DNA from: Candidatus Sumerlaeia bacterium
GTDB taxonomy: Bacteria > Sumerlaeota > Sumerlaeia > SLMS01 > JAHLLQ01
Length of the DNA: 45,092 bases
Assembly: GCA_033761985.1 (NCBI GenBank)
Contig: JANRMB010000292.1
Span: 1-45,092, forward strand
Reading direction: 5' to 3'
Shown here: positions 1,612-42,572 of the stretch, piece by piece
Position numbering within the stretch: the first letter of the stretch is position 1
How the letters are laid out: each line of letters begins with the position of its first letter
Notes under the pieces: model-generated
Told to the model about the DNA's origin: nothing
Databases searched by the model: none
Seen by the model: the letters and a program-made list of their open reading frames with translations, nothing else
Translations under genes and position numbers: made by a program

Positions 1612-1749
1612 TCGTTATTCGTTCAAAAACGAGTAGTTGCATTGATTCGACGCACTATCGGAGCATCAAGATGAAGAGATATTCTGCGTGAATTTCGGGC
1701 AACTGAACGAAAATCGGTCGGTGATGTTCATGAATATGGCACATAAAGT

Positions 1750-1794
1750 TTGACAGTCCAGATGAGGGAAATTCCATAAATTACTGAATATAAT
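1750..1794 (+). promoter_or_regulatory. Possible sigma70-type promoter region for the 1870-13446 operon
   Basis: Consensus TTGACA (1750-1755) and TATAAT (1789-1794) both occur in the AT-rich divergent intergenic region, but they are 33 bp apart, so they cannot form one canonical promoter. Confidence 0.25.
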
Positions 1795-1869
1795 AGACTT
1801 AGCAGTTTATTTTTGAACTTTCAAAAATCAGGGCACGAATTCTTCGTATATTAGCACTATAACTCCAAA

Positions 1870-2367
1870 ATGAAAGACCGTCTTTTCATGAAGAATGTTG
1901 AACTCCAACCGCTCGGAAAAGTTGTTGAAGTAAAGACCAATGAGCGCGTGCTCGATGCCATGCTCGCCAAGGAACTGAATGTTTTGATGGCGTGCGGCGG
2001 CAAAGGAATGTGCGCCACTTGCCATGTTTGGATCGACAAAGGGATGGATGAGTTGACCCCCATGAGCGCACGGGAGAAGCGCACGCTTTCCCGAGTGAGT
2101 GGGTGCGATGAACGCTCCCGGCTTTCCTGCCAGGCGAAGATTTTGGGTGAGGGCGTTGTTGTTCGCCTCCCCGATGGGATGTTCATCGAATCCACCAAAG
2201 ACCTCGAGTCGCTCATCGGCCAGCGTTCCAAAACCAATATTCTTCACCCTATTGACGGCCGCATTTTGGTGGAGCGGGGGAAAATCATCACCCGTAGCCG
2301 CATTATGCAGTTGGAAGAACTCGACGTTGATATGAACCGTCTTCGCCAGGAAGCGGAAAACATCTGA
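1870..2367 (+). CDS. 2Fe-2S ferredoxin with C-terminal extension (Slr0148-like)
   Basis: CGGKGMCATCHV...RLSCQ cluster motif; ~60-aa extension LIGQRSKTNILHPIDGRILVERGKIITRS; alternative ATG at 1888. Confidence 0.92.
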   Translation: MKDRLFMKNVELQPLGKVVEVKTNERVLDAMLAKELNVLMACGGKGMCATCHVWIDKGMDELTPMSAREKRTLSRVSGCDERSRLSCQAKILGEGVVVRLPDGMFIESTKDLESLIGQRSKTNILHPIDGRILVERGKIITRSRIMQLEELDVDMNRLRQEAENI

Positions 2368-2418
2368 TCCCCAAAATCTAGCCACCCACCACACATTTTT
2401 TTTTCAGGAGACGACCCC

Positions 2419-3078
2419 ATGTCTATCAGCACCAACGAAGGCGGAAACAACAAGATCCTTCACCCGTTCTATTCCCTGGCCGACTATATGAAGCACGACC
2501 ATTCCGCAGGAACGATTCAGCTCGCCACGGGTGTTCGGGGGATTCAAGTAACGGAGGATTTCATCGTGGGTTTGCAAAGTGGGTTGGAAGAAGAAGTCGG
2601 CGACGCCGCCGGCATGGTAATGTACAAAGCCGGTTTCGAGTGGGGCATGCAGGACATGAAAGCTTTTGAACGCCGCTTTGAGGAAGAATATGGCGGCCGC
2701 ACCAAGATGAGTGAGGCGAACATTATGTTCGTCCTTGAAACTTGGTGGTGGCCCTTGACCAGTGAAGGCTGGGGGACATGGAACATCGATTTTTCTCAAC
2801 GCAAGCAGGGGTTGATCTTTGTGGATCTCTATGATTCCGCTGTGGCAAAGTCTTTGGGGAATATCGGCAAACCGGTTTGCCACATGTATGCGGGTTTGCT
2901 GGCGGGAATTTTCACGTACTTTAGTAAACGTGATCTCTCTTCGATTGAAATTCAATGCTACGCCATGGGCGAGGACTTCTGCAAGTTCCTGATTGGGGGA
3001 GAAAAGCGTGTGAACGCAGCCTCCTTCTGGGTGGAGGAAGGTGCTTCGGCAGATGAAATCCGAAGCAAAGTTTCCTAA
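2419..3078 (+). CDS. V4R (4-vinyl reductase) domain protein
   Basis: GWG motif and PVCHMYAGLLAG...EIQCYAMGEDFCKF Cys pattern typical of V4R; AGGAG RBS upstream. Confidence 0.9.
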   Translation: MSISTNEGGNNKILHPFYSLADYMKHDHSAGTIQLATGVRGIQVTEDFIVGLQSGLEEEVGDAAGMVMYKAGFEWGMQDMKAFERRFEEEYGGRTKMSEANIMFVLETWWWPLTSEGWGTWNIDFSQRKQGLIFVDLYDSAVAKSLGNIGKPVCHMYAGLLAGIFTYFSKRDLSSIEIQCYAMGEDFCKFLIGGEKRVNAASFWVEEGASADEIRSKVS

Positions 3079-3141
3079 TTCGTTTATCCTGTGTCCCCTT
3101 GTAAAATTCACTCTCCGCTTCCAACTTGTTCAAGGTAGCCT

Positions 3142-3774
3142 ATGATGGAAAATCGTCGTCTTCTGGATAACACCCCTGAAATACTCGAATTACTCAAGGC
3201 GCTGTTAGGTCCTCCTACGGGAACGGTCTCTTGGAGTTTGGAAGCAAAGCCGGTTGAATCTAGTGGTTTGCTTTCATCGCAGGGGAACACAATAAAAACT
3301 GTTGGTACTTTGGTGCGCAAAGAGGTTGCCCTGACTCCCGTGCCAGTGGGGGAGAGCCGAGTGGCCAAGGCTGTCCGCCCTGCCGCATCTGCTCCTTCTA
3401 TGAGCACGGAAAAACTGGAAGTTTTGCGGAAGCTCTCTTCGCCTGTTGTGACCTTTTTTCAATCGGTGGAATGGGATGGCTCTCTTTCCCAAGCAACGCT
3501 AAAGACTGCATCCCCCGCCTCTGCCTCCATCCTCGAGGAACCTGCCTCGGATTGGCAAATGGAGGAAGTTGGTGAACTTGTTCTCTCCGTCCCCGTTGCC
3601 GCATTTGTGTCCTCCATTCAATGGGATGGCAAAGGTTCCTACGTACCGCCCAAACCACAAAAAGTGGCGGCCCCAAAACATATCACCGAAACAAACGTTG
3701 CTGCTTTGGTGATGGAACCCGCGCGAGATACAAAATCCGCACAGAATTTGTTCAGTGATTTTGGTTTCGACTAA
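3142..3774 (+). CDS. Hypothetical, largely disordered protein with a twice-repeated F-x-x-S-[VI]-x-WDG motif
   Basis: VVTFFQSVEWDG and VAAFVSSIQWDG repeats; Pro/Ser/Ala-rich linkers; acidic-aromatic C-terminus LFSDFGFD; co-oriented within the operon. Confidence 0.75.
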   Translation: MMENRRLLDNTPEILELLKALLGPPTGTVSWSLEAKPVESSGLLSSQGNTIKTVGTLVRKEVALTPVPVGESRVAKAVRPAASAPSMSTEKLEVLRKLSSPVVTFFQSVEWDGSLSQATLKTASPASASILEEPASDWQMEEVGELVLSVPVAAFVSSIQWDGKGSYVPPKPQKVAAPKHITETNVAALVMEPARDTKSAQNLFSDFGFD

Positions 3775-3827
3775 TCGTTTTCTTTATAGTGCCCCACCAT
3801 CTGATTTTTTCCTGAAAGGTTTTCCTC

Positions 3828-4508
3828 ATGTCTCACTCCTCTGTCCCCGTTTTGGCCGATGAACTTGTCCCCAATTGCTTCGACTCGGAAAGCTATCTCA
3901 AACTCGATCTCCGCACAGGAGTGATTCGCAATCGATTTGGGACAAAATGTATCCTCATGTCGGGCTTCCTCCTTCGCGGGATTTACATCGGACTCAAAAA
4001 CGAAACTGGTCCCGCATGGAAGCTTATTCTGCGGAGTTGCGGAGAAGCTTGGGGTGCGAAGTTTACCGAGCGTTTTATGAAAGAAATTGAAGAGTTCTAC
4101 GGTCAAAACATGAACGAGATGAGCATGGCGCGGTTCAAGGCCCTGGTGGAGGAGTATTTCGCCACAGCGGGATGGGGACGCGTCACCGTGGATTTCAGTT
4201 TGATTCACAAAGGGTTGATTCAAATCGAAGTGGAAAATCCCATACTCGGCGATGTTCTTCAGGATGCGGGTGAAAAGTGCGACGTGCTCTTTGAAGGGGT
4301 TTTCAAAAAGCTTTTCTCGAAAGTCTCGGGTCAGCAACTTGAATGCTATGAAACACAGAGTGTGGTTGAAGGTGCGCCATCCTCCATTTTCTTGGTGGGT
4401 CTTGGTAAGCGTTTTGAGGATATGCCCGAGTGGATTGACGAGAAGAAGCTCGGTCACTTGGCAATTATCGAACGCCTCGATCGCGCGGCTTCCGCCACCG
4501 CAAACTAA
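3828..4508 (+). CDS. Second V4R domain protein (partial loss of Cys ligands)
   Basis: DLRTGVIRNRFG, CGEAWG, AGWG motifs; KCDVLFEG...LECYETQS...SSIF where V4R usually has E-x-x-C...C-x-F. Confidence 0.85.
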   Translation: MSHSSVPVLADELVPNCFDSESYLKLDLRTGVIRNRFGTKCILMSGFLLRGIYIGLKNETGPAWKLILRSCGEAWGAKFTERFMKEIEEFYGQNMNEMSMARFKALVEEYFATAGWGRVTVDFSLIHKGLIQIEVENPILGDVLQDAGEKCDVLFEGVFKKLFSKVSGQQLECYETQSVVEGAPSSIFLVGLGKRFEDMPEWIDEKKLGHLAIIERLDRAASATAN

Positions 4509-4550
4509 TTCAAATCCTCCCATCGCCTTTTTCTTTTTGGTATTGTCACC

Positions 4551-6974
4551 ATGATGCTTCACCTGTTGCCCAAAGAATTGACCGAACGCTACGAGCCGAT
4601 TGATATTCTCGGCTACGGGGCGTTTGCCATGGTGGTAAAGGCCAAGGACATCAAAACCGGTGAATTTGTGGCCATCAAACATTTGCAAACAAAGCAGGGC
4701 GACAAACAAAAATTCTTCCGAGAACTCAACCTTTCCACCCGTCTTCGGCATCCCCACATCGTTCGCTGCTTGGATGTCTACTGTTCATCCGATACCGCCA
4801 GTGACATGGTGTTTGAATTTGCAGATGGTGGTATGTTGCGTACATACCTTGAGGAAGATAAACCCTTCGATTTTTCCGAGGCACTGGCCGTTACTCATCA
4901 GATCGCCCAAGGGCTGGAATATGCGCATCAGGAAGGTGTGGTTCACCGCGATTTGAAACCTGAAAACATCCTTCTTTTTTTGCAGCAAGATCCTGGAAAA
5001 CGACTCTACAAAATCGCTGATTTTGGCGTGGCAAAAATCATCGGTCCCAATCAAAAAACTGCGACCAGTATTGGCTCACCCAGCTATATGGCCCCCGAGC
5101 AGTTTTATGATTCTTATGATATCACCTCCGATATCTATGCGTTGGGTATCATGTTTTACGAACTTCTTCATGGTTCTGTCCCTTTCCAGGGGAGCACTGC
5201 AGAGATTTTCAAAGGCCATCTGGAGGGGACACTCCAGTACCAATCCACTCTTGATCTTGATCTACAACGTCTCATCCATGACATGACCCTGAAGATTCCT
5301 TATGCGCGCCCCAAGGCAAAGGATGTGAAGGAGCGCATTGAATCGATTGCTTCAAAATCAGGAATTCTTTTGCATGACTTCTCGGCAATCTCACAGGTGC
5401 CTTCTTCGAAACAAGAAGTGCAACCAACAGGGACACTCGTATTCGCTGATTTTGAAGAACCTGCTTCGGATCTTCCCAAACCAGATCGTAGTCTTATCGA
5501 GTTGAACCCGGTGAGTTCGCCTGAAACTGCAGAAGAGTCTGAGCCAGTTGATACAACACAAGACAGCGTAGATACTCAGAATGTATCTCTCCCTCTTCTG
5601 GTTGAAGAGGAAGACGAAATCCTGTTCCCAGGCTTCCATGTGGAGGATGTCCCCAAGGTTGAGAGCCAGGAAAAAGAAGAATCCGAAGAAGCAATCTTAT
5701 TCAGTCAGGATGTTCTCACACCACCTGCATCTGAGGTAGAAAAATCAAAAAATAGCTCAAAACCTCCTCTGGAAGAAGAAAGCCTTTTCGATGATTTTCC
5801 AGGAGTAGATCAATCCTCGCATCAAGTCGCGATCAAGAAATCTGATGCCTCAACTGTTCGAGTTCCTGCAATTGTCACGGAAGCAAAAGTCCAACAGGAA
5901 TCCGCGGATGTGTTCTTTGAGGGCTTTGAAGATGAAGAGAAATTTGATCGCACGGAGATCAAGGAAGTCTCAAGTGTGGCGGAAAAAAATCTTAAGCAAT
6001 ATGGTCGCTTTCAAGTGGAGATCAAGTGGTCGCGTGCTGTGGAACGGAAAACAACCGGTCTCCTGAGCTTGGAGGATGGCCAGGATTTGTTGATGGTTAT
6101 TCCAGGCAAGGGTTTGCAGGAGATTAAGCCGGGTGGTTTGAGAGGCGGGATGGTTTACGAAGGGGTCTATGAGGTGCTTGGTCAGCCCGTACTCGGCCAT
6201 GTTTGCATGATTCGGAATCAAACCTTCTGTGTGTTGCAGCGGGGGGAGTTCTATGAGTCAGATTGGAAGTTTGACGATAAAACCACAAGCATCGCCATCT
6301 CCCAGGATCTTTCCACTGTGGCGAGTTTTTCCGGTGCCACTGTTACGTGTCGTCGATGGGGTGGTAAACTGATGTGGACAGGTCAATTCGATCGTACCGG
6401 GAAGGGTATTTTCCTTTCATTGAGTAATGATGGTAATCTCATTATTTGCTCGATTATGGGAGAAGATCAAGCGGTGCACTTTTTTGACGACGAAGGGGAA
6501 AGCCTTGCTCGTTTCTGGATGGATGCTCCCATTGTTTCCGCAGCGGTACACCACGATCGCCTTGGTGTATGGGTGATTGTTGCTGATTCTGATGAAGTCT
6601 GCACTCTCTACAACGTGACGCAACACCACAAACGCCCAGTGTGTGCCTTGGAAAAACCCCTTCACAACTTGAAGGCTAGTCGGGATTGGCTTGCTGGATT
6701 CGATGACGAGAACCGACTTCACTTGGTTGATTTGAGTATTGGGTTGGTAATGCCCGTGGAAGAAGTAACTGGGACACCTCTCGATATCTGTGTCGGAAAA
6801 TCCCTCAACGAATTGTACGTTCTCACCACACGTGATCAAGTAATGCGCTATGTCACTGGTATTGAAATCGGTCTTCGGGACTCAGAGTCCCGGGTTGTGA
6901 CCAAACTCGATCAATCTGAAAAACCCACTCTTTCCAATCGTTCGAATGAATCGGAGGCCTTGTTCAGTAAATGA
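4551..6974 (+). CDS. Ser/Thr protein kinase with acidic linker and C-terminal beta-propeller-like domain
   Basis: GYGAFA loop, VAIK, HRDLKPEN, DFG, GSPSYMAPE, DIYALG; last ~300 aa show repeated beta-strand units (SIAISQDLSTVASF, FLSLSNDGNLII); no TM helix seen. Confidence 0.93.
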   Translation: MMLHLLPKELTERYEPIDILGYGAFAMVVKAKDIKTGEFVAIKHLQTKQGDKQKFFRELNLSTRLRHPHIVRCLDVYCSSDTASDMVFEFADGGMLRTYLEEDKPFDFSEALAVTHQIAQGLEYAHQEGVVHRDLKPENILLFLQQDPGKRLYKIADFGVAKIIGPNQKTATSIGSPSYMAPEQFYDSYDITSDIYALGIMFYELLHGSVPFQGSTAEIFKGHLEGTLQYQSTLDLDLQRLIHDMTLKIPYARPKAKDVKERIESIASKSGILLHDFSAISQVPSSKQEVQPTGTLVFADFEEPASDLPKPDRSLIELNPVSSPETAEESEPVDTTQDSVDTQNVSLPLLVEEEDEILFPGFHVEDVPKVESQEKEESEEAILFSQDVLTPPASEVEKSKNSSKPPLEEESLFDDFPGVDQSSHQVAIKKSDASTVRVPAIVTEAKVQQESADVFFEGFEDEEKFDRTEIKEVSSVAEKNLKQYGRFQVEIKWSRAVERKTTGLLSLEDGQDLLMVIPGKGLQEIKPGGLRGGMVYEGVYEVLGQPVLGHVCMIRNQTFCVLQRGEFYESDWKFDDKTTSIAISQDLSTVASFSGATVTCRRWGGKLMWTGQFDRTGKGIFLSLSNDGNLIICSIMGEDQAVHFFDDEGESLARFWMDAPIVSAAVHHDRLGVWVIVADSDEVCTLYNVTQHHKRPVCALEKPLHNLKASRDWLAGFDDENRLHLVDLSIGLVMPVEEVTGTPLDICVGKSLNELYVLTTRDQVMRYVTGIEIGLRDSESRVVTKLDQSEKPTLSNRSNESEALFSK

Positions 6975-7744
6975 CTCAAATGATCGGCATATTGAGAACT
7001 CCATCATCACTTCCCGCCAACACGCTCTCGTTGAATATCGGTGCAGCCTTGGCGCAACGGGGCAGCCAAGTGCTTCAGCTTCTACAGGGGCAAAGCGCGA
7101 CTGTATCACAAACCGCCTACCCACGGCTTTCCAAACTTCAGGGGGGGACGGACCAATTGATGACAGGCGATGCCTCACTACAAAGTGCTCTGTCACCCTT
7201 CAATTGGGTGGTGTATGAAGTGCAGTCTGATTGGGCTCCTGCCAGTATCAGCCTTCTTGCCTCAAAAGCAACGCATCTGATTCTCGCCTATGAGGAGTCT
7301 TCTCTGTCACTCAACGCTCTTCCTCAATTGCTACAACCTCTGGCGAAGCTCAAGGCAGAAAACAAGTGTCCCCAAATCACCAACTTTTTAGTCACCAAAG
7401 AAAACAGCGCAGCGGAGAATTTAAAGAAATTCGATGCGGCGTGTGGTACGTTTGCCACCATCAAATCCTTGTATCCTGGCATACATAGTCTCCCAACGAT
7501 TACTCATGATCCCGATTTGATTTCTTCATCGATGAAGGAAACGACTGTCTTGGCTCAAAACCCTCTTTCCAAAGATGCCGAGGTATTCCGAACGCTTGCC
7601 ACACAACTCGCTCCCGGAACCGAAGGTGATGCTGTGGTTCGTCGTTCTCTGAAACGGCACATGGCTGGCAAACCTCCAGCAGTTGATTCATTTTTCGACA
7701 AGTTGTTCGATCAAATTGGGCAACTCTTCGGTGGCTCAAAGTAA
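6971..7744 (+). CDS. MinD/ParA-like protein with degenerate Walker A
   Basis: N-terminus IGILRTPSSLPANTLSLNIGAALAQRGSQVL follows the ParA/MinD pattern but lacks KGGxGKT; VLAQNPLSKDAEVFRTLA resembles the ParA C-terminal region; amphipathic tail SFFDKLFDQIGQLFGG; ATGA overlap with the kinase. Confidence 0.7.
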   Translation: MTQMIGILRTPSSLPANTLSLNIGAALAQRGSQVLQLLQGQSATVSQTAYPRLSKLQGGTDQLMTGDASLQSALSPFNWVVYEVQSDWAPASISLLASKATHLILAYEESSLSLNALPQLLQPLAKLKAENKCPQITNFLVTKENSAAENLKKFDAACGTFATIKSLYPGIHSLPTITHDPDLISSSMKETTVLAQNPLSKDAEVFRTLATQLAPGTEGDAVVRRSLKRHMAGKPPAVDSFFDKLFDQIGQLFGGSK

Positions 7745-7802
7745 AGACTCCCTAACACATCCAAAATCATACAGCACATTCCACCAATAAAGGGCGATAC
7801 TC

Positions 7803-10691
7803 ATGGACTTCACACTTCAGGAACTCATCGATAAAACGCGTCAACGGTTGATGACCGATCAGGAGATTGTGCTCGCGGAACGTAGGGCCCGGCGGATGGA
7901 ATTAGGAATTGCTTCTCTTGAACGTTGGCAACAAGTGGAAAGCACCCTCATTCCCGCTGCGATCAAAAAAGCTGCGGATGAGTCCGGTGTCAGTGATCCT
8001 GCAATCATTTCCACGTTTGATGAAATCCTTCGGGTGATTCTTCGTCAGGTGGCGTTTGCCAGTGGGAGTGATGATGCGACACGATTGGTGAAAAATCTTG
8101 AGTCTGTTCACCGGGCCTTTTGGAAGTCACCCGTCCCCACCGCATTTGTTTCTTTGAGCTTTGAGCATCTTCGTGATGCACTTAAGAAATCCTTCCCAGT
8201 GGCGGAGTTCAATCAACTTGATCGCATGATTCGGCTGGAGCAACTCAGCCTTGTCTCGTTGTGTTCTTTTGCCGGAATTCAGGAATCATTAATTCGCCAG
8301 AGCTTGGATGATCTCTTCAAATTGAATAGCAAATGGGAAGTGCAGGATGCTTCGTTGCGTCGTCGGCTTCAACAGTTTGCCGAAACATTGATGCAGTTCA
8401 GTGCTCGAGCCCTGCTTCCTGAAGGAGGCGGACCTCTCGCAGATCTCATCGCCCGCACGAATGAAAAAATCAAACGAGATCGTCTGTTTGCCATGGCGAT
8501 TGTTGAGTTGTTGGGTTTGATGATGGGGATGATGCGTTCTCGGGAACTCAACCGTTATCATCTTAAGACAAATCATCTTTGGTTGGAAGTTCAACGTTCC
8601 TTAAAAGTTGCGTTGGTGTTGAACCAAACACGCGATGCCATTAGCCAAAGTGTTTGGAAGAAACTTTCGGATGAATTTCGCAATGGGTTTGAGGACCTCA
8701 AAGAAGCGGAAAAGGCCATCAAGCAGGATTCGTATGAGTTGCTTGCGGCGTGTGTCATTTTGTTGACTCCCTCGGGGACAGAGAAGTTTCACAAGGCAGT
8801 ATTGGAAGTTGATCGCCGCATTTACCGCTACAAATTCCAGGAAGCAATTGTTCAGAGATGGTTGCATCTTCTACAGGAAGAGTCTGCTCGTATCATGGGT
8901 GCGGAGGCCTTCGGTGATATTGCAGAAACTCTGGAGCAATCTTGTACCTTCATTCTAGTAGCCGGTGATTTTGCCACCAAACGTGCTCAAATCCTTGTCG
9001 ATGTAGCCCAAAAGCTTGCCGATGAATTCCCTGAAGTCTTCGAACGCAAAGCACGCTACTTAAGCTACGTGATTCGCGACCACGAGGCGCTTCTGGATTC
9101 CGTTTATCAGACACTACTTCCCCAATCAGAACTAACTACCCTTGGGCGTATTGCCATTTTTGGTGATGTTCTGATAGCGGATAAGTTTCCCAAAAAACTG
9201 ATGTTCCGTTCCTTTGAATTACTCGAAGCGGCTGTGGCGGAGCGTTTCACTGATCGAGTTGCAGGTGTACTTCAACCCCGCTTGGAAGCCATCATGCGCT
9301 ATCTACGGGTGTGTGTGGAACTCGCCACCACCGAAGAGAAAATCCTCAAAGATGCAACCGAACCCATTCTTGCCCAATACAAGGATAAAATCTCCTCCTT
9401 CAAGAATGGCGAAACAAAAGTTCGCCGCGACGCGCGTACTTTCTTTCGTTCAGCTCTTGCTTCCATCATTCCGGGCAATGAGTACGATCTCACTTGGGGG
9501 CACGATGTTTTGTTTGAAACGCTTCAAGATCGCCAGTTTGACGAAGCGATGATGAATGCTCATATCAACAGCCTCATAGCCTCTGTAAAATCCAATTTGG
9601 ATGCGGAAACCTGTGCTTGGCTGGTTCCAATACTGGATCGCTGCCGCAAGTTCACCGTGGCTGCTTCAGCCCTCGCCTCCAAGGAAGAAAAAATCATCGA
9701 TCAAACGGTGAAAACGGTTTTGGAAAAGCATCCCCATATTGCTCTTTCCCATGCCTCCGCTTCACGTCACCTCTCTCGTGATTTCTCTCGTTTATTCCGA
9801 TTCTCCCTGCTTTCCCTTTTCCAAAAGGGTCAGGAGAAAATGGCTCACAACCTCGATATCTTCTACGATGTTATTGTCTCCGAGGAGTTGAGTGTTTCCT
9901 ACATTCGTGATTGTTATGAGGGGATCCGCAACGCTGTTAAGATAAACCTGAATGCCGATGCCGCATCCATTTGGATGGAAGTTCTGAACCCATCGTGTCA
10001 GGCAATTATTACCACCGCCGAAGTGATTGATCGGGCTCCCACTTTTGAAGGAATCCTCTCCTCACAAACAGCTGAACTCTCCGCTAACGACAAAGCCCAA
10101 CTTGCAACCATTACGAGGCTTTGTCTTCAAGCAGGTGCATTAACCAGTTTCCGCGGGGGACAGGTCAACTTTGCACGCGAACTTCGGAAAGAGGGACTGA
10201 AGCTTGCCGCCCACGAAACACTTACTCCGGAAATAATCTGGAAAGTATTGAGCGAGCTGCATTTGGGTGCTCAAAACTTCTTGGAAGGTGAGTCACGCAA
10301 CCTGATCGCCAACGCCTTTCAATCGGCGAGGGATTATCTGTCCCTTCAATCCAAAGTATCCCGCATGGAGTTGGAACTATTGAAAGTTGCTGTGGAGAAG
10401 GCACGCGCCAAAGGGACAGGTCCCTCCCTTCCTCAAAACATCTTCCAGCAAGATGGTCGTTATCTGCTTCAGGCGGCCCTGCTGTCACTCATCCCAGGGT
10501 GTGATGAAAGCTGCACTCAGATTCGGCAAACCCTTTCCACCATCTATCGCCACCATCGCCAAGGTAATCACGGTGTGATCACCTCCACCTTGGAACACAT
10601 GAAGGCAACGTTCCAGCAGGAAGTGAAGGTGGGTCCTGTGGGGACACTAAACGCTCATCTTGATTCGTTCGCCAAATCACTTGCCGCTTGA
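7803..10691 (+). CDS. Large all-helical protein of tandem phycobiliprotein-like (globin-fold) domains
   Basis: 962 aa with an exact 117-aa periodicity (D309/D426/D543/D660; P206/P323/P440/P557); repeat 6 aligns almost without gaps to the downstream 156-aa phycobiliprotein-like protein. Confidence 0.8.
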   Translation: MDFTLQELIDKTRQRLMTDQEIVLAERRARRMELGIASLERWQQVESTLIPAAIKKAADESGVSDPAIISTFDEILRVILRQVAFASGSDDATRLVKNLESVHRAFWKSPVPTAFVSLSFEHLRDALKKSFPVAEFNQLDRMIRLEQLSLVSLCSFAGIQESLIRQSLDDLFKLNSKWEVQDASLRRRLQQFAETLMQFSARALLPEGGGPLADLIARTNEKIKRDRLFAMAIVELLGLMMGMMRSRELNRYHLKTNHLWLEVQRSLKVALVLNQTRDAISQSVWKKLSDEFRNGFEDLKEAEKAIKQDSYELLAACVILLTPSGTEKFHKAVLEVDRRIYRYKFQEAIVQRWLHLLQEESARIMGAEAFGDIAETLEQSCTFILVAGDFATKRAQILVDVAQKLADEFPEVFERKARYLSYVIRDHEALLDSVYQTLLPQSELTTLGRIAIFGDVLIADKFPKKLMFRSFELLEAAVAERFTDRVAGVLQPRLEAIMRYLRVCVELATTEEKILKDATEPILAQYKDKISSFKNGETKVRRDARTFFRSALASIIPGNEYDLTWGHDVLFETLQDRQFDEAMMNAHINSLIASVKSNLDAETCAWLVPILDRCRKFTVAASALASKEEKIIDQTVKTVLEKHPHIALSHASASRHLSRDFSRLFRFSLLSLFQKGQEKMAHNLDIFYDVIVSEELSVSYIRDCYEGIRNAVKINLNADAASIWMEVLNPSCQAIITTAEVIDRAPTFEGILSSQTAELSANDKAQLATITRLCLQAGALTSFRGGQVNFARELRKEGLKLAAHETLTPEIIWKVLSELHLGAQNFLEGESRNLIANAFQSARDYLSLQSKVSRMELELLKVAVEKARAKGTGPSLPQNIFQQDGRYLLQAALLSLIPGCDESCTQIRQTLSTIYRHHRQGNHGVITSTLEHMKATFQQEVKVGPVGTLNAHLDSFAKSLAA
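8250..10007 (+). repeat. Degenerate protein-level tandem repeat, period 117 aa (351 nt)
   Basis: Aligned motifs AIKQDSYELL / VIRDHEALL / VRRDARTFF / LSRDFSRLF spaced exactly 117 aa; LLP/LTP/LLP/IIP also spaced 117 aa; further degenerate units flank it (FQQDGRYLL..LIP). Confidence 0.8.
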
Positions 10692-10734
10692 TTTTGCCAC
10701 CACGACCTTTCGCGCCACTCACCAGGAGATTTCC

Positions 10735-11205
10735 ATGAATACAGCACTTCGTCAACTAAGCCAGGAATTACTGACTCGTCCGATTCAAGGAGCAGACCTG
10801 CAACTCCTCAAAAGCCATAGCCAAAAGATTCGCGTTGGTGCTTCTGCTGCCATCCAATTCAAGGATGCCCAAGGAATCATTATTGATCGCACGGTACGCG
10901 AAATTTACAAAAAATACCCCGATAAGCTAAATCAATATCGCGACTGTGAAGCTAAAACCGCTCGCGATATGCACCTTGTGATTGGTTATTGTGTTTATTC
11001 TCTTCTTCTGGATGACCCCGATTATGCCAAGGAGCGGATGTTGTATTGGTTTCGAACTGTTTTGAAAAACTATGAGTTCGGTGATAGCTTCATCGCCGAT
11101 TGCTACACCATCCTCAAGAGTCATATTGCAAAGTATCTTGAAGAGCAGGAAGCGGTGATGATGAATCACATGGTGGATGAATCTATCGCCATTTTTGTCA
11201 GCTAA
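10735..11205 (+). CDS. Phycobiliprotein/allophycocyanin-like globin-fold protein (Slr0149-like) lacking the canonical bilin-binding Cys
   Basis: IIDRTVREIYKKYP...KTARDMHLVIGYCVYSLLLDDPDYAKERMLYW parallels the phycobiliprotein C-x-RD...LRY..YA.L.GD....ER.L segment; AGGAG RBS supports ATG 10735. Confidence 0.82.
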   Translation: MNTALRQLSQELLTRPIQGADLQLLKSHSQKIRVGASAAIQFKDAQGIIIDRTVREIYKKYPDKLNQYRDCEAKTARDMHLVIGYCVYSLLLDDPDYAKERMLYWFRTVLKNYEFGDSFIADCYTILKSHIAKYLEEQEAVMMNHMVDESIAIFVS

Positions 11206-11244
11206 ACTCCTGAATCGTATGGATCAGATTTGTTGGAATCTTTC

Positions 11245-13083
11245 ATGAGCAATTCCATTGCACCGGAACTCGCAGAAGTACTGCAGGAACTTGGGATTAT
11301 CTCCAAGTCCGGCCTAGAGGAAGCTCTCTTCGAAGCCGAACAGCAGGACGTTTCTGTTTGGCGTCTGCTGAAACAGCAACAGATTCTCACTCCCAAACAA
11401 GCCGATACGTTGGATATGTGCGAAAAAGGGTATATCCCCATCAAGGTTGCACGAATTACTCTGTCCATGGAACTGAAACAAAATGTTCAGAAACCCAATC
11501 CAACCAAAACAGTGCCGGCAGATACACAGGAAACCGTCAAGCAGGTTGTAAAGAGAAACGAAACACCTGCAAACTCTCCCAAGCAGGCTGTTTCGGTGCA
11601 GTCTCAAACCCCAAATTTGGATTCCTCTTCGGCTCATGTGATTGGACAGATTATCGGCGAAAAGAAGTTTGGCAACTACCTCAAAACTCCCTTACCCACT
11701 GCATCTGCCAATCAGCCCAAACCGGATCCGGTTGCTCTTAAGTCTCCCACACCGCTGCCACATTCAACTGAACCTTTTCTCGATGAGCTTTCGCCCTTAC
11801 CGCTGGATTCAACCTATGAGGAAAAGGTTGTGTACACCCCGGAACCTGAATCTAGGACTGAGGTGGAAGCTGAAGAATCCAATTCCCTCGGAAGTTCTTC
11901 GATTATTGAAAAACTCCGCGTTTTAGATCAGCGTAGCAATTCACCAACTCCAGTTGCACAGGAAGAAAGTAGCCTTCCATCCATGCAACCCTCCACAATT
12001 CAGCAGGTGTTCCCCAAGCCGCCGGAGTTTCTTTCCAACGGTGTGGAAAAGTTTACTCCGCAGCGTAAAAATCGCCCACTGAGTACCGTAGCAGGTCCTC
12101 TGTCCCCCAGTACCAACTCCAGCACCCAGCAGAAGTCTCGTCAGAAAACTGACCTCTCCTATCTTGTGGGGAGAAAAATTGGAAAGTTTCAACTCAGCAC
12201 CCAACTCGGAAAGGGGTCTGCTGGAACCGTGTTCCTTGCCCACCACGCCTCGTTGAACATGCCGGTCGCGATCAAAATTCTGGATCCTTTCCTTGCAAAG
12301 CAACACCCGGAACTTATCCATCGGTTCATGCTGGAGGCCAGTTCTGCCGCTCGAATTAACCACCCCAACGTCATACGTGTGCTCGACTGCGATCATGTGG
12401 ACGGATTTCATATCATCGTAATGGAGTATGTGGACGGCATTTCTCTTTCTGAACTGATCCAAATGAATGGGGCACTTTCTGAAGATCGAGGTTTGAAGTA
12501 TATTCTCTCCGTTGCTGAAGGATTGGAAGCCGCTTATCAGGTCGGTATCGTTCACCGCGATATCAAACCAGCGAACATCCTTATCACAAAAACCAAGCAA
12601 GTTCGTATTGCCGATATGGGCCTTGCACGAGCAATCAAAGATAACTCCATGGCCGATACCGCTCAGGGTGTTGGGCTCGGAACCCCCCAGTATTTCCCAC
12701 CTGAACAAGCCCGAGACGCCGCCAGTGTCGATCATCGGTCAGACATTTATGCCCTGGGAGTCACTCTGTACGTGGTTCTCTCTGGTGAACTCCCCTTCAA
12801 GGCCAAAACCTTGAGTGAACTTATCTACCAGCACGAAAACGAGTATGCCATTCCCCTCAATGTTGTGAATCCTTCCATCACCCAACGCACAACAAATCTG
12901 GTGATCACCATGATGCAAAAACACCCAAGTGATCGCTACCAATCCTATGAGGCCTTGATTCAGGCGATTCAATCCTGCATCGTGGAATGCCAAACCAAGT
13001 CCGAGGATATGGGTTCCGGTACAAGCAGATCAAGCTTCTCCATGCTCAACAAACTTGGAAACTTCTTTAATCGCAAAACTTGA
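11245..13083 (+). CDS. Ser/Thr protein kinase with N-terminal MshEN-like helical domain and Pro/Ser/Thr-rich linker
   Basis: GKGSAG, VAIK, HRDIKPAN, DMG, GTPQYFPPE, DIYALG; N-terminal LAEVLQELGIISKSGLEEAL; start may be TTG 11230. Confidence 0.93.
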   Translation: MSNSIAPELAEVLQELGIISKSGLEEALFEAEQQDVSVWRLLKQQQILTPKQADTLDMCEKGYIPIKVARITLSMELKQNVQKPNPTKTVPADTQETVKQVVKRNETPANSPKQAVSVQSQTPNLDSSSAHVIGQIIGEKKFGNYLKTPLPTASANQPKPDPVALKSPTPLPHSTEPFLDELSPLPLDSTYEEKVVYTPEPESRTEVEAEESNSLGSSSIIEKLRVLDQRSNSPTPVAQEESSLPSMQPSTIQQVFPKPPEFLSNGVEKFTPQRKNRPLSTVAGPLSPSTNSSTQQKSRQKTDLSYLVGRKIGKFQLSTQLGKGSAGTVFLAHHASLNMPVAIKILDPFLAKQHPELIHRFMLEASSAARINHPNVIRVLDCDHVDGFHIIVMEYVDGISLSELIQMNGALSEDRGLKYILSVAEGLEAAYQVGIVHRDIKPANILITKTKQVRIADMGLARAIKDNSMADTAQGVGLGTPQYFPPEQARDAASVDHRSDIYALGVTLYVVLSGELPFKAKTLSELIYQHENEYAIPLNVVNPSITQRTTNLVITMMQKHPSDRYQSYEALIQAIQSCIVECQTKSEDMGSGTSRSSFSMLNKLGNFFNRKT

Positions 13084-13101
13084 GGCAAAAGGCGAGCATC
13101 G

Positions 13102-13446
13102 ATGATTGAGTCTGACTTCATTTGTGCGGATTGCGGCGAGGCTCAGTCCGTTCGTCATAGCATCAAGGAGAAGCCCCTTCCAATTTGCCCAGCTTGCCAA
13201 ACACCCATGGAAAGACTCGTCGCCGGGGGGAGTCACTCCTTGATCAAAGGCGGAAAAGTGGATTCAAAGGTGGCCAAAGTCGTTACCGATAAAGACCGTG
13301 CTGATATGGATCATGCCCGAACCGTTGCACAGAATATCAAATCCTTCGCCCAGCCAAAAACTCAGGAAGCATTCCTTAAACGGGAATCAATCAAAGGCGA
13401 GACACAACCGGCGATACCTGCAAAGCGGACTCGCAAACCCCACTAA
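13102..13446 (+). CDS. FmdB-family zinc ribbon protein
   Basis: CADCG...CPAC...MERLV pattern; 18 bp downstream of the kinase. Confidence 0.8.
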   Translation: MIESDFICADCGEAQSVRHSIKEKPLPICPACQTPMERLVAGGSHSLIKGGKVDSKVAKVVTDKDRADMDHARTVAQNIKSFAQPKTQEAFLKRESIKGETQPAIPAKRTRKPH

Positions 13447-13523
13447 TTCCCCTTCTTTTGGTTGAGTCTCTCAGACTATCACTTTCATACATGGCCAATA
13501 TTTCATCATGAAAGTGGGAAGAG

Positions 13524-16433
13524 TTGGAAAAGTCTGTCGCCTTGGAGGGGAGTACCCCTACCACACCCCATTCCGAATACCGCAAAATTCTCCCGGAACT
13601 GCTTCTGATCACAATCGTTGCGGCTATCCTGAGGTTTTTGTTCCTCGATCGTCCAGATTTGTGGATGGATGAAGTACGCGTGTATTTTGATGCCATCCGC
13701 GGCACCAATGAAGTCGTCAGTGATGCGCACCGAGTCCACTTGGGAATTCTGGGATGGTTGTTGAACAATATATCGGATTCTCCATGGATGCTTCGGTTCT
13801 GGGGAGCATTAGCCGGTACGTTGGCGGTTCCAATTATGGCGCTAACGGCCTACCTTTTAGGTGGGCGCCCTCTATTCCGGGTTTGTGGATTTCTGGCGGC
13901 CTTCAGCCCATTTCTCGTCTTCTACTCGCGGGATGCAAACTACTATGGGCCCATGACGTTTTTTGCATCACTCCAACTCCTCTGTATTGCCCTCTTTGTC
14001 TGTAAGCAACGGGTCCTTTCCGTTATCCTGCTTTGTCTAACAGCGGTCATCACTCATTACAATCACCCGTTTGCATCGATCCATTCGGTTGTATCCATTT
14101 CGATTGTTGGGCTCCTGACACTTGTGGATTTATGGAATCACCGAGCCCATTTGATGAAGTATCTTTCCACCAAAGGGGTGGTTTTTTTGGTGATTGGGTT
14201 CCTCCTTTTTGCCGGTTTGCTGGTGTTTGTGGGAAAAGGATATTCTCAAACATTTGGTGTTTTGCAGGATAAATTCAGTTTTGGTAAACCCTTGGCGAAT
14301 GTTTCCCTCACTCCAACGTTCTTCTATCAACTCTTCACCTCCCTTTTAGTTGTTCATGTTCCTGTACAAGGCTATGAAACAGTCTCACGTTTCTTGGGTT
14401 TGATCCCGTTTGTCCTGGCGATCTTCGGAGTGTTTCAGGTCGTGAGAAGTTTCCTTCAGAGACTTCAGGGAGCCAGTGATTCCTCAAATCACCAAAACGG
14501 AATCGCCCAAATCGCCGTTGTTGGAGTAATCCTTCTCAGTCTGATTCTGGCGTTGTTTGTCATTTTCAATGTGAGTTATCGTACGTTCTACCCCCGGTAT
14601 TTTAGCTTCCTTGTTCCTGGAGGAATGCTTTGCGTTGCCCTTGGAATCTGCTCCTTGAGCTCTTTTGCAGGGAAGTCTTTTCGTTCCGAATACCTCCTCG
14701 CACCCATCCTCCTATTTTACGCTTTTCAACTCACTCCGCATTATTCTCCCAAAGCTGCAAACTTTAAGCTTCTGGACGAGTATGTGGAAAATGAATCCAC
14801 AGAAGATTCACGAGTCTTTTTCCCGGTGAATGAGGAACTCTCCCAGGCCCTCTTTTACTTCAATAGCGAGCAACTGGAAGCCTTTATTCTCCACCACCTT
14901 CGCCCCTCACTCAAACACTCCGCACGCAACTGGCTCAGCCTCTATCTTTATGGAAGAAAGGATGTCATCGTTGCATCCGCATGGCGCCATGCACCACTCG
15001 GTGAATTCTGGACACACTTGGACGCCATTACGGAAACAGTCGTCGCTGGAACTTCTGTTCACGGTCCTGAACAAAATGCCCGCGTTTATCACTGGAAAAC
15101 GGCAGACCGCGCCCTGCTCCCCAATATCGCCACCCGATTTGAATACGGTCCGGGAACGAATACAGTCGTCGTTGATGAGGGACACTGGAAGCTCCATGGT
15201 GACTCGAAATTAATCGACCAACTGAAATCCCGATTCTCCTCCAGCACTCCAGATTCCGTGCAAAACTCGGCTTCTGTACTTTACTCCTTTGATGCCCAGT
15301 CATCAGGAACTCTTCTCGCACTTCCGGTCATCCCAGAAAAATTGGATTTAGGTCCATTTGGTCACTATAATTTGACCAATGACACCCGGAACAAAGAAGG
15401 CATTTTGGTGGATGGAAAGGTCATCGTCCCCGGAGATTTTGAGGAGGAGCCTGAAGGGGAACCCGTCTTCCAGATGGCCTTTGATGGAGTCTTCAATTAC
15501 GTAATCTATCAACCCGCAAATGAACAACGCCATCTTGTTTTCAAGCGCTTTTGTTCAGCCGAACCTCTCCCCAAAGGCCATGGAAAGAACACATTCCTCT
15601 ACGAAGTCGCCGTGAATGGTGTACACCAGGGAATCTACCCGAGTGAGGATAAACCCGGCGAATGGGTGGAGACTCAGATAGATCTCGTGCTCCCTCCCGG
15701 TAATCAAAATGTTATGGTCTACGCCACCAAGATACGCCTCAATGATCCCTTCCATGATTGGATCTGGGGTGGTACTGAATGGAATCAGGGTCCTGCTACA
15801 AAACCCACGCTTCCCGTGCCCGATTCGTTACTGACAAAAATTCCTGATTCCTCTCCCTTCATTTGGGGCGAACCGGGTGCCGTGAATTTATCACCTCAAT
15901 TTGTACCCACCGCACCTCATTACAATCGCCACGTTTCCTCTGAGCGTACTGGCCCCAGTGGTAGTAAAGCTCTTCTATTCACCTTCAACGGAAATTATTC
16001 TCACGCCAAGGAAGTTTACTCCCAAACCTTCACCAAACCCATCCCCGTTCGCGAGGGGCAACTCTTCGTGTACTCCACCTTCATTCGAAATGAGTACGCC
16101 AAAGATTACGCCGCATCACTGATGAATCTCTTCCTCGATGCTAACGGCAAATCCATGGGGGCAACCCAAGGCAAGCAACAGCACTCCACTTATCCCCAAG
16201 CCCAACGTTGGGTACGTTACGTGGAGATTGTGCAAATCCCCAAAGGATGCGCCTACTTTGCTCCCGGCGTTTTTGTGTACCCACCAGACCCCGCCAAAAC
16301 CAAACAACAAGGCCGCTTCATGCTGGATGCGATTACCCCCGCCACGGGGCAGGAAGGGCCATTCACTCCCGGTTATCTTACGCCAGCGCTCTTCTTTGAT
16401 CCGGAACAGGCTCTCTCAGAACTCAACTCATGA
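13524..16433 (+). CDS. GT-C (PMT/GT39-like) membrane glycosyltransferase with large C-terminal extracytoplasmic region
   Basis: LRF...DLWMDE motif after TM1, SPFLVFYSRDANYY, about 10-12 hydrophobic helices in the first ~410 aa, PRYF motif, then ~550 aa beta-rich soluble region. Confidence 0.8.
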   Translation: MEKSVALEGSTPTTPHSEYRKILPELLLITIVAAILRFLFLDRPDLWMDEVRVYFDAIRGTNEVVSDAHRVHLGILGWLLNNISDSPWMLRFWGALAGTLAVPIMALTAYLLGGRPLFRVCGFLAAFSPFLVFYSRDANYYGPMTFFASLQLLCIALFVCKQRVLSVILLCLTAVITHYNHPFASIHSVVSISIVGLLTLVDLWNHRAHLMKYLSTKGVVFLVIGFLLFAGLLVFVGKGYSQTFGVLQDKFSFGKPLANVSLTPTFFYQLFTSLLVVHVPVQGYETVSRFLGLIPFVLAIFGVFQVVRSFLQRLQGASDSSNHQNGIAQIAVVGVILLSLILALFVIFNVSYRTFYPRYFSFLVPGGMLCVALGICSLSSFAGKSFRSEYLLAPILLFYAFQLTPHYSPKAANFKLLDEYVENESTEDSRVFFPVNEELSQALFYFNSEQLEAFILHHLRPSLKHSARNWLSLYLYGRKDVIVASAWRHAPLGEFWTHLDAITETVVAGTSVHGPEQNARVYHWKTADRALLPNIATRFEYGPGTNTVVVDEGHWKLHGDSKLIDQLKSRFSSSTPDSVQNSASVLYSFDAQSSGTLLALPVIPEKLDLGPFGHYNLTNDTRNKEGILVDGKVIVPGDFEEEPEGEPVFQMAFDGVFNYVIYQPANEQRHLVFKRFCSAEPLPKGHGKNTFLYEVAVNGVHQGIYPSEDKPGEWVETQIDLVLPPGNQNVMVYATKIRLNDPFHDWIWGGTEWNQGPATKPTLPVPDSLLTKIPDSSPFIWGEPGAVNLSPQFVPTAPHYNRHVSSERTGPSGSKALLFTFNGNYSHAKEVYSQTFTKPIPVREGQLFVYSTFIRNEYAKDYAASLMNLFLDANGKSMGATQGKQQHSTYPQAQRWVRYVEIVQIPKGCAYFAPGVFVYPPDPAKTKQQGRFMLDAITPATGQEGPFTPGYLTPALFFDPEQALSELNS

Positions 16434-17383
16434 ACCATTTTCTCCACGTTGGTGATCTCCACTTCTCCCGGTTTCCCAATCGATTGGCGGATTGGCGTGG
16501 AAAGCGCCTGCTCGGACTGCTGAATCTGGCACTCAATCGCAGAAAAGCTTTTCACCTGTCCCTTGCCTCCATCCTGATTGCCAAGCTTCAGGAGCAACTC
16601 CAACAACAATCCACTCACCTCCTCTGTTCCGGAGATTTTTCCACCACTTCCCTTCCCCAGGAATTTGGAGATGCTCTTCACCATTTCTCGCCATTGCGTC
16701 ACTCCGGGGCCACGTTCATGGCCGTACCTGGAAACCATGATCGCTACAATGGATTCGATTTTCGGCGACAGACCATGCTTAAGTCCCTTGTGTCTCCACT
16801 GTCCCCGTTTATCCAAAGCTGGCCCTTCCATTTTCTCACACCCGATCAAACTGTCTGTATTATTGGAATCGATGCCACCACTCGAAATGGAATCGGTTCC
16901 CACGGATTCTTTCGTGATGCTGACTACTTGAAATCTCTTCTCCAAAAACGACTCCCCAACACGGTAAAACAACTCATTTTCCTCTGTCACTTTCCGGCCG
17001 AATCACCCACCTCATTACTCCATCGAGATCGTGGCGAACAGCTTCGAAACAGTTCCTCCCTGTTGTCGATTCTTGAACAATTCCCAATCCCCACTTTGTT
17101 TTGTCACGGGCATTTTCACCAACGGTGGATCTGGCAAAGCCCCAGAATTCCACATCTTACCTACCTTAATGCAGGCGCACCGATGCTGCGCCTTTCCCAG
17201 CCCGGCAAAACGACCAAAGAAGCAGATCTGGGATTTTTCGAATTCGAGTCCAACCCAACGATTCAATCCATACGGCTGCATCGTCTCAAACTCAGCAACA
17301 CCAACATGGTCTGGAATTTCTCAGATCATCCCCTTCCTCAGAACTCCCAACCGATTGACTTACGGTCCATTGCTCTGGGTTGA
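16430..17383 (+). CDS. Calcineurin-like metallophosphoesterase
   Basis: GDLH, GDFS, PGNHD, CHFP, HGHFH motifs; ATGA overlap with the GT-C gene. Confidence 0.9.
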   Translation: MNHFLHVGDLHFSRFPNRLADWRGKRLLGLLNLALNRRKAFHLSLASILIAKLQEQLQQQSTHLLCSGDFSTTSLPQEFGDALHHFSPLRHSGATFMAVPGNHDRYNGFDFRRQTMLKSLVSPLSPFIQSWPFHFLTPDQTVCIIGIDATTRNGIGSHGFFRDADYLKSLLQKRLPNTVKQLIFLCHFPAESPTSLLHRDRGEQLRNSSSLLSILEQFPIPTLFCHGHFHQRWIWQSPRIPHLTYLNAGAPMLRLSQPGKTTKEADLGFFEFESNPTIQSIRLHRLKLSNTNMVWNFSDHPLPQNSQPIDLRSIALG

Positions 17384-17390
17384 TGGAAAG

Positions 17391-19208: not shown

Positions 19209-19298
19209 AAAGTCGACAAACAACGGCGAATCAAATACTGGAGAGTCTCGTCTTTCTTCGGTCGTTTGGCAACTCCAGCTTTCATCTCCTGCTGCAAC

Positions 19299-22987: not shown

Positions 22988-23006
22988 TGGCTTTCCCCAG
23001 TCAAAT

Positions 23007-24855: not shown

Positions 24856-24936
24856 CTCCGCAACACTCCGGAAAAATCATTCAACAGCCCTACAACGGGC
24901 AAAAGATCACATCGCAACCAATTGCCAACAGGCAAT

Positions 24937-42501: not shown

Positions 42502-42550
42502 CGCACTGCCTTGATTGAGAATCATTGAAGATAGCATCCAACGCTTCGGA

Positions 42551-42572
42551 GAGTGTGTCAATTTTTACACTC
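42551..42572. promoter_or_regulatory. Dyad GAGTGT-N10-ACACTC, candidate enhancer (UAS) site
   Basis: Perfect 6-bp inverted repeat with a TGT-N10-ACA core between the two divergent bEBP genes. Confidence 0.5.

Follow-up and report, generated by a model that had tools for sequence, protein, structure and literature searches.

Phycobiliprotein paralogs of non-photosynthetic bacteria, termed bilin biosynthesis-associated globins (BBAGs), occur in gene clusters together with genes for heme oxygenase, a bilin reductase of the pre-PcyA type, an iron-sulfur (Fe-S) protein, and two V4R proteins that belong to separate clades, and the cyanobacterial slr0144-slr0149 cluster descends from such clusters, as described in the main text of Rockwell, Martin, and Lagarias 2023 (PMC10151467). 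According to the same text, BBAG-1 and BBAG-3 need no lyase to bind several bilins, some BBAGs have the CXRD motif, in which the arginine and the aspartate hydrogen-bond the bilin, and BBAG-2 forms biliverdin adducts through a non-canonical cysteine motif. Here, we describe P0001, a full-length, free-standing phycobiliprotein-fold globin of 156 amino acids (aa) from a Candidatus Sumerlaeia bacterium that is not an antenna protein. Its gene lies in a stretch of 45,092 nucleotides (contig JANRMB010000292.1 of assembly GCA_033761985.1), referred to below as the window, and is co-inherited with genes for a 962-aa chain of globin units (P0002), a 2Fe-2S protein, two V4R proteins, and two Hanks-type kinases.

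In Synechocystis, the Slr0144-0149 proteins co-purify, as stated in the text of PMC9880817, and the slr0144-0152 operon closes with spkG, whose mutant loses phosphorylation of ferredoxin-5, as reported in the text of PMC11863333. A further group of globins, the photoglobins, is described in the text of PMC8717448 as not recognized by Pfam models. The main text of PMC10151467 traces phycobiliproteins to bilin-binding globins of heterotrophs and treats the origin of the alpha/beta architecture of the antenna as still a question. The locus described here bears on the role of the conserved Fe-S/V4R/globin module where there is no photosystem to assemble.

Fold, attachment column, and lineage of the small globin

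The open reading frame (ORF) of P0001 runs from the ATG at 10735 to the TAA at 11205 on the + strand and comprises 156 codons. An alternative, longer ORF from a TTG at 10660 runs into the upstream gene, and all four close homologs of P0001 are 156 aa long with the same methionine start; because of this overlap and of the shared start and length, 10735 is taken as the true start.

The match of P0001 to the phycobiliprotein family is far beyond chance. The Pfam profile PF00502 (“Phycobilisome”) was matched with an E-value of 2.7e-13 and 50.6 bits (cut-off 22.2), residues 15-151 aligning to profile positions 11-152 of 155, and the best sequence match in the PDB was the Gloeobacter phycocyanin alpha chain 2vjr_A (E 0.0057, with 27 chains at E ≤ 10). 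An AlphaFold2 model built from a 70-sequence alignment had a mean predicted local distance difference test (pLDDT) score of 97.0 and a predicted template modeling (pTM) score of 0.87, and Foldseek found 212 matches to it in the PDB at E ≤ 1e-3. All 48 chains listed among these are phycobiliproteins or engineered derivatives, with query-normalized template modeling scores of 0.74-0.83 in 46 and 0.69 in 2, and the alignments to phycobiliproteins extend over 150-178 columns, the N-terminal X-Y hairpin included. An earlier model made from 5 sequences (pLDDT 59), for which Foldseek gave 0 matches at E ≤ 1e-3, still had only phycobiliproteins as its top matches and is superseded by the 70-sequence run. 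A family profile built from 70 family members detected phycobiliproteins in the PDB down to E 3.2e-18 (60 of the 60 chains among the matches listed), and the Atlas look-alikes of P0001 are PF00502 clusters from Cyanobacteriota and Myxococcota (score 0.96). A tblastn search of P0001 against the plasmid collection returned 4 records, all at E ≥ 2 and therefore meaningless. The first-pass annotation had called the product phycobiliprotein-like from its letters alone and was ready to abandon this call if no profile or structural match to the phycobiliprotein/globin clan turned up; PF00502 and Foldseek provided matches of both kinds.

Three motifs named in that annotation, RDCEAKTARD, GYCVY, and ADCY, are all present in the translation and contain the cysteines C71, C86, and C123, respectively. 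The phmmer alignment with 2vjr_A sets eaKTARDm of the query opposite qaKCARDi of the target, a MAFFT alignment with CpcA and CpcB of Acaryochloris matches K-T-A-R-D column by column to K-C-V-R-D and A-C-L-R-D, and the family profile, as a third independent alignment, likewise places T75 on the attachment column. Antenna proteins form their thioether through the cysteine of C-x-R-D, and in P0001 this column is occupied by Thr75. Thus, PF00502, the phmmer alignment, AlphaFold2, and Foldseek concur on a phycobiliprotein fold that is devoid of the canonical cysteine and keeps the R-D pair, as had been proposed. The proposal was worded as a cysteine replaced by threonine, and of this the threonine at the cysteine column stands, whereas “replaced” goes further and implies an ancestral cysteine: in an unrooted tree, loss of the cysteine and never having had it are indistinguishable.

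An exhaustive profile search of 1.84 billion representatives retrieved 153 proteins at E ≤ 1e-3, 39 at E ≤ 1e-10, and 4 at E ≤ 1e-30; word-based homolog searches were shallow (5, 3, and 36 proteins), and few matches carry a name. Across 171 domain rows of the wider family, the cysteine column holds Cys in 57, Thr in 39, Gly in 30, Ala in 22, Leu in 6, Val in 5, Trp in 4, Ser in 3, Ile in 2, Met in 1, and a gap in 2, and is followed by R-D in 148. By these counts, a missing cysteine is common in the family, and threonine for cysteine is not peculiar to P0001. Within the clade of P0001, position 75 is Thr in 9, Ala in 3, and Cys in 0 of 12 non-redundant representatives (~30-50% identity), and eight residues are invariant in all 12: K74, R77, D78, R15, D94, W105, R107, and Y124.

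For phylogenetic analysis, antenna references were taken from annotated plasmids: CpcA and CpcB of Acaryochloris, CpeA and CpeB of Rippkaea, ApcB and two Apc-like proteins of Fischerella, and one allophycocyanin of Chroococcidiopsis. Trees were built on chosen subsets (75, 63, and 68 rows) of 184-190 rows, each FastTree clade being covered. The clade of P0001 was recovered throughout, with 13 rows and support of 98 in FastTree, 12 rows in the quick IQ-TREE (Shimodaira-Hasegawa-like approximate likelihood ratio test, SH-aLRT, 93), and 11 sampled rows in the careful trees (97/97 and 99/96). The final careful IQ-TREE, unrooted and computed from 161 columns of 68 of the 190 rows, contains four supported groups (ultrafast bootstrap/SH-aLRT): the antenna proteins (8 rows, 100/100), the Acaryochloris BBAGs with relatives (10 rows, 99/93), the small-globin clade that includes P0001 (11 rows, 99/96), and the poly-globin units (9 rows, 95/80). 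The small-globin and poly-globin groups lie together on one side of a branch with 98/87 support and the remaining 48 rows on the other, and the lineage of BBAG-1, BBAG-3, and the cyanobacterial BBAGs, represented here by the Acaryochloris globins, lies across this branch from the small-globin clade. These Acaryochloris globins, encoded on plasmids pREC3 and pREC2, are annotated as allophycocyanin, yet group with BBAG-like proteins and not with the antenna.

The approximately unbiased (AU) test was used to ask whether the small globins could form a joint clade with the antenna proteins. On the quick tree, with 4 Cpc rows, the constrained topology was better by 13.06 log-likelihood units (p 0.788). 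Because this tree was judged under-searched, the test was repeated on the careful tree with 8 antenna proteins, where the same joint clade was 9.0 log-likelihood units worse (p-AU 0.046). The trees therefore lean against a sister relation of the small-globin clade to the antenna proteins, and, as placed by sequence, the P0001 lineage is distinct from both antenna phycobiliproteins and cyanobacterial BBAGs. The gene had also been put forward as relevant to the origin of phycobiliproteins; since P0001 falls outside both the light-harvesting and the cyanobacterial-BBAG clades, its bearing on that origin is indirect.

The poly-globin chain and the predicted pair

Upstream of the small globin lies the gene of P0002, in which Pfam recognizes a single PF00502 domain (aa 620-728). 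The family profile matches aa 1-145, 263-382, 355-501, 501-617, and 620-733 and, weakly, 828-870. In the relatives P0014 and P0025, 8 of 8 units were detected with this profile, and these two proteins are the basis for assigning units 2 and 7 in P0002. Unit 1 matches profile positions 1-149 and the other seven approximately positions 36-154 (~117 aa each); given these different starts, P0002 can be described as one full-length domain followed by seven globin cores that lack the X-Y hairpin. Self-BLAST of P0002 showed no internal repeat, the units being visible to profiles alone. Multi-unit proteins number about ten among the 153 family representatives and range from 467 to 1174 aa, those akin to P0002 from 467 to 974 aa, and in an alignment of 10 poly-globins (A3), 15 of the 28 invariant columns fall within aa 1-140. 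Literature searches at the level of titles and abstracts, together with the main text of PMC10151467, found no paper on tandem chains of phycobiliprotein-like globins.

The units differ in their pockets. Unit 1 is without the R-D pair in all 11 poly-globin proteins, and cysteine occupies the CXRD column in 0 of the P0002 units; the relative P0022 has K-C-N-R-D in one unit. Counting the small globin together with the chain, the R-D pair of the putative bilin pocket is kept in up to 4 of 9 units (the small globin and units 4-6), none of them with the attachment cysteine.

The X-Y extension (profile positions 1-35) is present only in unit 1 and in the small globin. A complex of the two was modeled from aa 1-155 of unit 1 (10-row alignment) and the small globin (70-row alignment), giving a complex score of 0.77 (runs 0.79, 0.71, and 0.77), whereas none of 3 controls scored above 0.00; of 157 solved complexes, 116 attain the mark set for this score, as do 2 of 215 mismatched pairs, a calibration that is approximate with custom alignments. 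At least 76% of contacts are common to the runs, and the pLDDT of the partner is at least 89. In the modeled interface, residues 1-43 and 80-91 of the globin face residues 16-46 and 77-98 of unit 1, and the unit 1 invariants R81 and Q82 are part of it, touching globin residues 9-17. This geometry corresponds to that of the phycobiliprotein alpha/beta “monomer” and, as a prediction, supports binding. It had been suggested from the sequence that N-terminal helices might join the small globin to the opening unit of P0002; the X-Y extension, the conservation of the gene pair, and the predicted complex are consistent with such a pairing.

The gene cluster in the window and in related genomes

The small globin gene is part of a run of ten + strand genes that extends from 1870 to 13446, in which neighbors either overlap by 4 nt or are no more than 64 nt apart (Table 1). 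A scan of reference genomes for this cluster produced 82 pattern matches, of which 2 were confirmed. The first locus, L001, comes from a metagenome-assembled genome (MAG) of Candidatus Sumerlaeota; its small globin is 75% identical to P0001, and the same twelve genes follow one another as in the window. The L001 genome and the record of P0005 and P0009 represent the same organism (100% and 99.9% identity) and were counted once. The second locus, L002, comes from a MAG named “Proteobacteria bacterium” and encodes a small globin with 42% and a large protein with 24% identity. Its genes are ordered Fe-S, V4R, small ORF, V4R, kinase, 973-aa protein, and small globin, followed 25 nt downstream by a heme oxygenase (PF01126, E 1.3e-26) and then by a ParA-type ATPase and a kinase. 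The pair of globin and poly-globin genes is kept in 3 of the 3 genomes with context, and a pre-PcyA-type reductase was found in none of these three loci.

Table 1 Position, strand, and supporting evidence of features in the window
Feature	Position	Strand	Evidence
2Fe-2S ferredoxin-like protein	1870..2367	+	PF00111 E 2.4e-9
V4R protein type A	2419..3078	+	PF02830 E 1.9e-18
210-aa protein without family assignment, encoded between the V4R genes	3142..3774	+	no Pfam match
V4R protein type B	3828..4508	+	PF02830 E 0.0047
Hanks-type Ser/Thr kinase 1, 807 aa, with long C-terminal region	4551..6974	+	PF00069 E 3.1e-56
257-aa protein, weakly MinD/ParA-like	6971..7744	+	TIGR01969 E 0.0086, far below cut-off
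P0002, 962-aa chain of ~eight phycobiliprotein-like globin units	7803..10691	+	PF00502 and family profile
Unit 1 of P0002, aa 1-153, N-terminal X-Y extension, predicted docking site	7803..8261	+	
Units 4-6 of P0002, aa ~386-733, x-R-D kept without Cys (YVIRD, KVRRD, HLSRD)	8958..10001	+	
Shine-Dalgarno-like AGGAGA, 5 nt 5' of the ATG of P0001	10724..10729	+	direct sequence reading
P0001, small phycobiliprotein-fold globin, 156 aa	10735..11205	+	PF00502, AlphaFold2, Foldseek
C71 of P0001, candidate shifted attachment site, 4 residues (one helical turn) before T75	10945..10947	+	
K74-T75-A76-R77-D78 of P0001, counterpart of K-C-x-R-D with Thr at the thioether Cys position	10954..10968	+	alignments
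Hanks-type Ser/Thr kinase 2	11230..13083	+	PF00069 E 1.1e-49
Zn-ribbon protein, cluster membership uncertain	13102..13446	+	PF09723 E 2.2e-7, below cut-off

The Fe-S protein of the window is 88% identical to its counterpart in L001 and 65% identical to that in L002. Kinase 1 keeps its position in both related loci, and kinase 2 is kept downstream of the small globin in both. The 257-aa protein, encoded between kinase 1 and the 962-aa chain, has no match to a Pfam P-loop ATPase and shares 49% identity with its L001 counterpart; L002 instead has the regular ParA-type ATPase that follows its heme oxygenase gene. The 210-aa protein is 42% identical to that of L001, with no match in L002 or in the two Acaryochloris clusters described below; L002 and the Acaryochloris clusters each have a small unknown ORF at the place of this gene, and the Atlas look-alikes of the 210-aa protein are cyanobacterial hypothetical proteins (score 0.92, a lead only). 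The Zn-ribbon gene is found in L001 and not in L002. A scan of positions 1400-17800 for promoters and terminators found fewer sites than in shuffled sequences. Judged from L001 as well, the bacterium of the window probably belongs to Sumerlaeota. This phylum is heterotrophic, and the host bacterium is probably non-photosynthetic.

Several other genes of the window and of L002 were recorded on the side. The Zn-ribbon gene is followed by a gene for a 969-aa protein (13524-16433, +) that has no Pfam match and a hydrophobic N-terminal half suggestive of many membrane spans; it occupies the same place in L001 (46% identity) and is absent from L002. Two adjacent subtilase (S8) genes encode proteins of 610 and 629 aa (17391-21188, -), and four adjacent genes (21914-26712, -) for a type III polyketide synthase, a flavin-dependent (FAD) oxidoreductase, an S-adenosylmethionine (SAM) methyltransferase, and an ATP-binding cassette (ABC) exporter resemble a small polyketide cluster. 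Farther along are a low-molecular-weight phosphotyrosine phosphatase fused to a DnaJ domain (39933-40979) and two divergently oriented genes for sigma-54-dependent response regulators (40993-44070). In L002, a PIN-domain gene lies beside that of a nucleoside-phosphorylase-like protein with the effector-associated domain EAD7 (15806-17756, -), an arrangement that resembles a defense system.

Proposed function and comparison with known systems

The reading that we prefer, and to which we give about an even chance, is that P0001 belongs, as a subunit, to a kinase-linked sensor or scaffold and binds bilin reversibly and non-covalently. The small globin would use the N-terminal X-Y hairpin and helix E to dock onto unit 1 in the alpha/beta manner, unit 1, devoid of R-D, being the pocket-dead partner and the small globin the pocket-bearing one, in which K74, R77, and D78 would bind a linear tetrapyrrole. 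The likeliest ligand would be biliverdin, because the L002 cluster has a heme oxygenase and no bilin reductase. With threonine in the place of the thioether cysteine, binding would be non-covalent and reversible, which suits a sensor or carrier better than an antenna, and the retention of K74, R77, and D78 in the small globin is informative because unit 1 has lost R-D in 11 of 11 proteins. The globin assembly may work together with the Fe-S and V4R proteins, its state being read or set by the two kinases, in a putative parallel to the link between SpkG and ferredoxin-5 in the slr0144-0152 operon of Synechocystis.

Several points weigh against this proposal. The main text of PMC10151467 gives no established function for the BBAGs studied. 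Pfam detected neither a heme oxygenase nor a bilin reductase among the 41 ORFs of the window, and tblastn with two heme oxygenases, PebA, and PebB (E ≤ 1) found none in the 45-kb window or in the 20 kb of L001. The genomic context comes from three genomes, those of the window, L001, and L002. The passing complex score, besides its approximate calibration, may reflect likeness, because alpha/beta dimers of phycobiliproteins have been solved many times. Finally, C71 is kept in all 5 closest sequences, so that covalent attachment is possible in this sub-lineage.

The last point is the core of an alternative that we regard as unlikely, namely, that P0001 is a biliprotein with a shifted cysteine, binding bilin covalently via C71, for example, through the A-ring vinyl of biliverdin. 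Besides being invariant in the 5 closest sequences, C71 opens the long helix (71-91 in the AlphaFold2 model) that carries K-T-A-R-D, and BBAG-2 offers a precedent of a non-canonical cysteine motif for biliverdin in the main text of PMC10151467. Among 170 rows (P0007 was dropped as a near-copy), cysteine at position 71 was found only where the canonical one is missing, in 17 of 113 such rows compared to 0 of the 57 with it (Fisher p 0.0008, the rows being related), and it recurs in separate paralogs: units 2 and 7 of several poly-globins, P0024, and P0033. Yet, C71 is replaced in 4 of the 12 clade representatives (by Thr, Met, Ala, and Ala), and one of those without it is L002, the sole locus in which a heme oxygenase adjoins the globin. 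C86 is present in 8 of the 12 and C123 in 4; as C71, kept in 8, is not invariant, a shifted Cys71 cannot be the mechanism of the whole clade.

A chromophore-free globin fold, acting as a structural or regulatory subunit, a kinase substrate, or a docking module, is an explanation that we hold to be doubtful; the non-heme globin of RsbR in the stressosome is a comparison for such a subunit. It would accord with the lack of both a canonical cysteine (0 of 12) and any invariant cysteine in the clade, with the absence of bilin-synthesis genes from the window and L001, and with the two kinases that flank the globin genes, and unit 1 shows that pocket-dead units exist in the system. Against it speak the invariance of K74, R77, and D78 in 12 of 12 small globins, while unit 1 lost its R-D throughout, and the heme oxygenase directly after the L002 ortholog. 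A heme-binding globin, in which heme binding was regained or kept through a histidine, appears very unlikely: the wider superfamily is that of globins, and H80 (after R-D-M) and H28 are invariant in the 5 closest sequences, but in the clade, H80 is found in 5 of 12 representatives and H28 in 8 of 12, no histidine being invariant in the manner of the proximal histidine of heme globins; furthermore, H28 lies within the N-terminal hairpin of the predicted interface, and all structural neighbors are bilin proteins. A true light-harvesting subunit of an unrecognized phototroph, although compatible with the full-length fold with its X-Y hairpin, the predicted alpha/beta-like pairing, and the joint clade with CpcA and CpcB kept by the first AU test, is improbable in the extreme, given that the sole NCBIfam match of P0001, apcB, reaches 17.8 bits against an antenna equivalog cut-off of 228.15, that the attachment cysteine is missing, that no linker, lyase, photosystem, or bilin-reductase gene is among the Pfam matches of the 41 window ORFs, and that the 8 antenna proteins form their own fully supported clade elsewhere, the joint clade being disfavored in the second test.

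Beyond the non-covalent bilin-binding role proposed for P0001, the small globin and the eight-unit chain might constitute a phycobiliprotein-style assembly in a non-phototroph, in which an alpha/beta-like pair, formed by the only two units with the X-Y hairpin, nucleates a stack of covalently chained globins. Alpha/beta pairing and multi-globin stacking, the two principles on which the architecture of the phycobilisome is built, would then have been present, either before light harvesting or independently of it, in a complex that senses bilin or redox state reversibly and is wired to Hanks kinases. We put this forward tentatively and consider it rather improbable. The globin and the poly-globin are an expressible pair with which to ask about reversible bilin binding and alpha/beta pairing outside phototrophs.

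Compared to the alpha and beta subunits of the antenna, P0001 has the same full-length fold, the K-x-x-R-D motif, and a predicted heterodimer formed through the X-Y hairpin and helix E. It differs in being without the attachment cysteine, below the curated cut-offs, and outside the 100/100 antenna clade, in having no linkers or lyases nearby, and in its predicted partner, a domain of a polyprotein rather than a free subunit. With photoglobins and BBAG-2, it shares the condition of a non-heme globin of heterotrophs tied to bilin and signaling, but those globins have B12-binding partners, whereas the window, L001, and L002 contain no Pfam match to a B12-binding domain, and P0001 has KTARD, not CXQD or RGMC, and matches PF00502 well. 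The core-membrane linker ApcE consists of one phycobiliprotein-like domain followed by linker repeats. Like ApcE, P0002 would place a phycobiliprotein-like domain in a large multi-domain protein that pairs with a free subunit, but it has about eight successive globin units and no Pfam match to a linker domain.

The closest resemblance is to the BBAG clusters. Through V4R-A of the window, two plasmid clusters of Acaryochloris marina were found, each with the order V4R, hypothetical protein, V4R, 2Fe-2S protein, and “allophycocyanin”; in strain MBIC10699, they span 7941-11249 of pREC3 (L008) and 7905-11203 of pREC2 (L009). Identity between the window and these clusters is 56% for the Fe-S protein, 46-48% for V4R-A, and 29-33% for V4R-B, whereas P0001 and the cluster globins share 24-35% over partial alignments (E 2e-3 to 4e-4). 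This pattern indicates that the Fe-S/V4R module is homologous to that of the published cluster and that the globin is of another lineage. As in the BBAG clusters, a phycobiliprotein paralog is accompanied by an Fe-S protein, V4R-A, and V4R-B, and, in one relative (L002), a heme oxygenase adjoins the globin; as in slr0144-0152 of Synechocystis, where the gene is spkG, a Ser/Thr kinase is part of the operon. Unlike in the BBAG clusters, bilin-synthesis genes are absent from the window and L001, the heme oxygenase of L002 being the only one; the motif is T-x-R-D in the window versus C-R-R-D (T-C-R-R-D) in Acaryochloris; and in the window, the Fe-S gene comes first, and the 962-aa chain and two kinases are additional. 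The main text of PMC10151467, to which this comparison extends, does not mention a poly-globin chain or kinases. Judged from gene content and sequence, the cluster in the window is a variant of the published Fe-S, two-V4R, and globin cluster (BBAG/slr0144-0149). Thus, the kind of system is already known, that of phycobiliprotein paralogs of heterotrophs in Fe-S/V4R clusters, and what appear to be new are the lineage of small globins without the cysteine, the octa-globin partner, the predicted alpha/beta-type pairing outside phototrophs, and the two embedded kinases.

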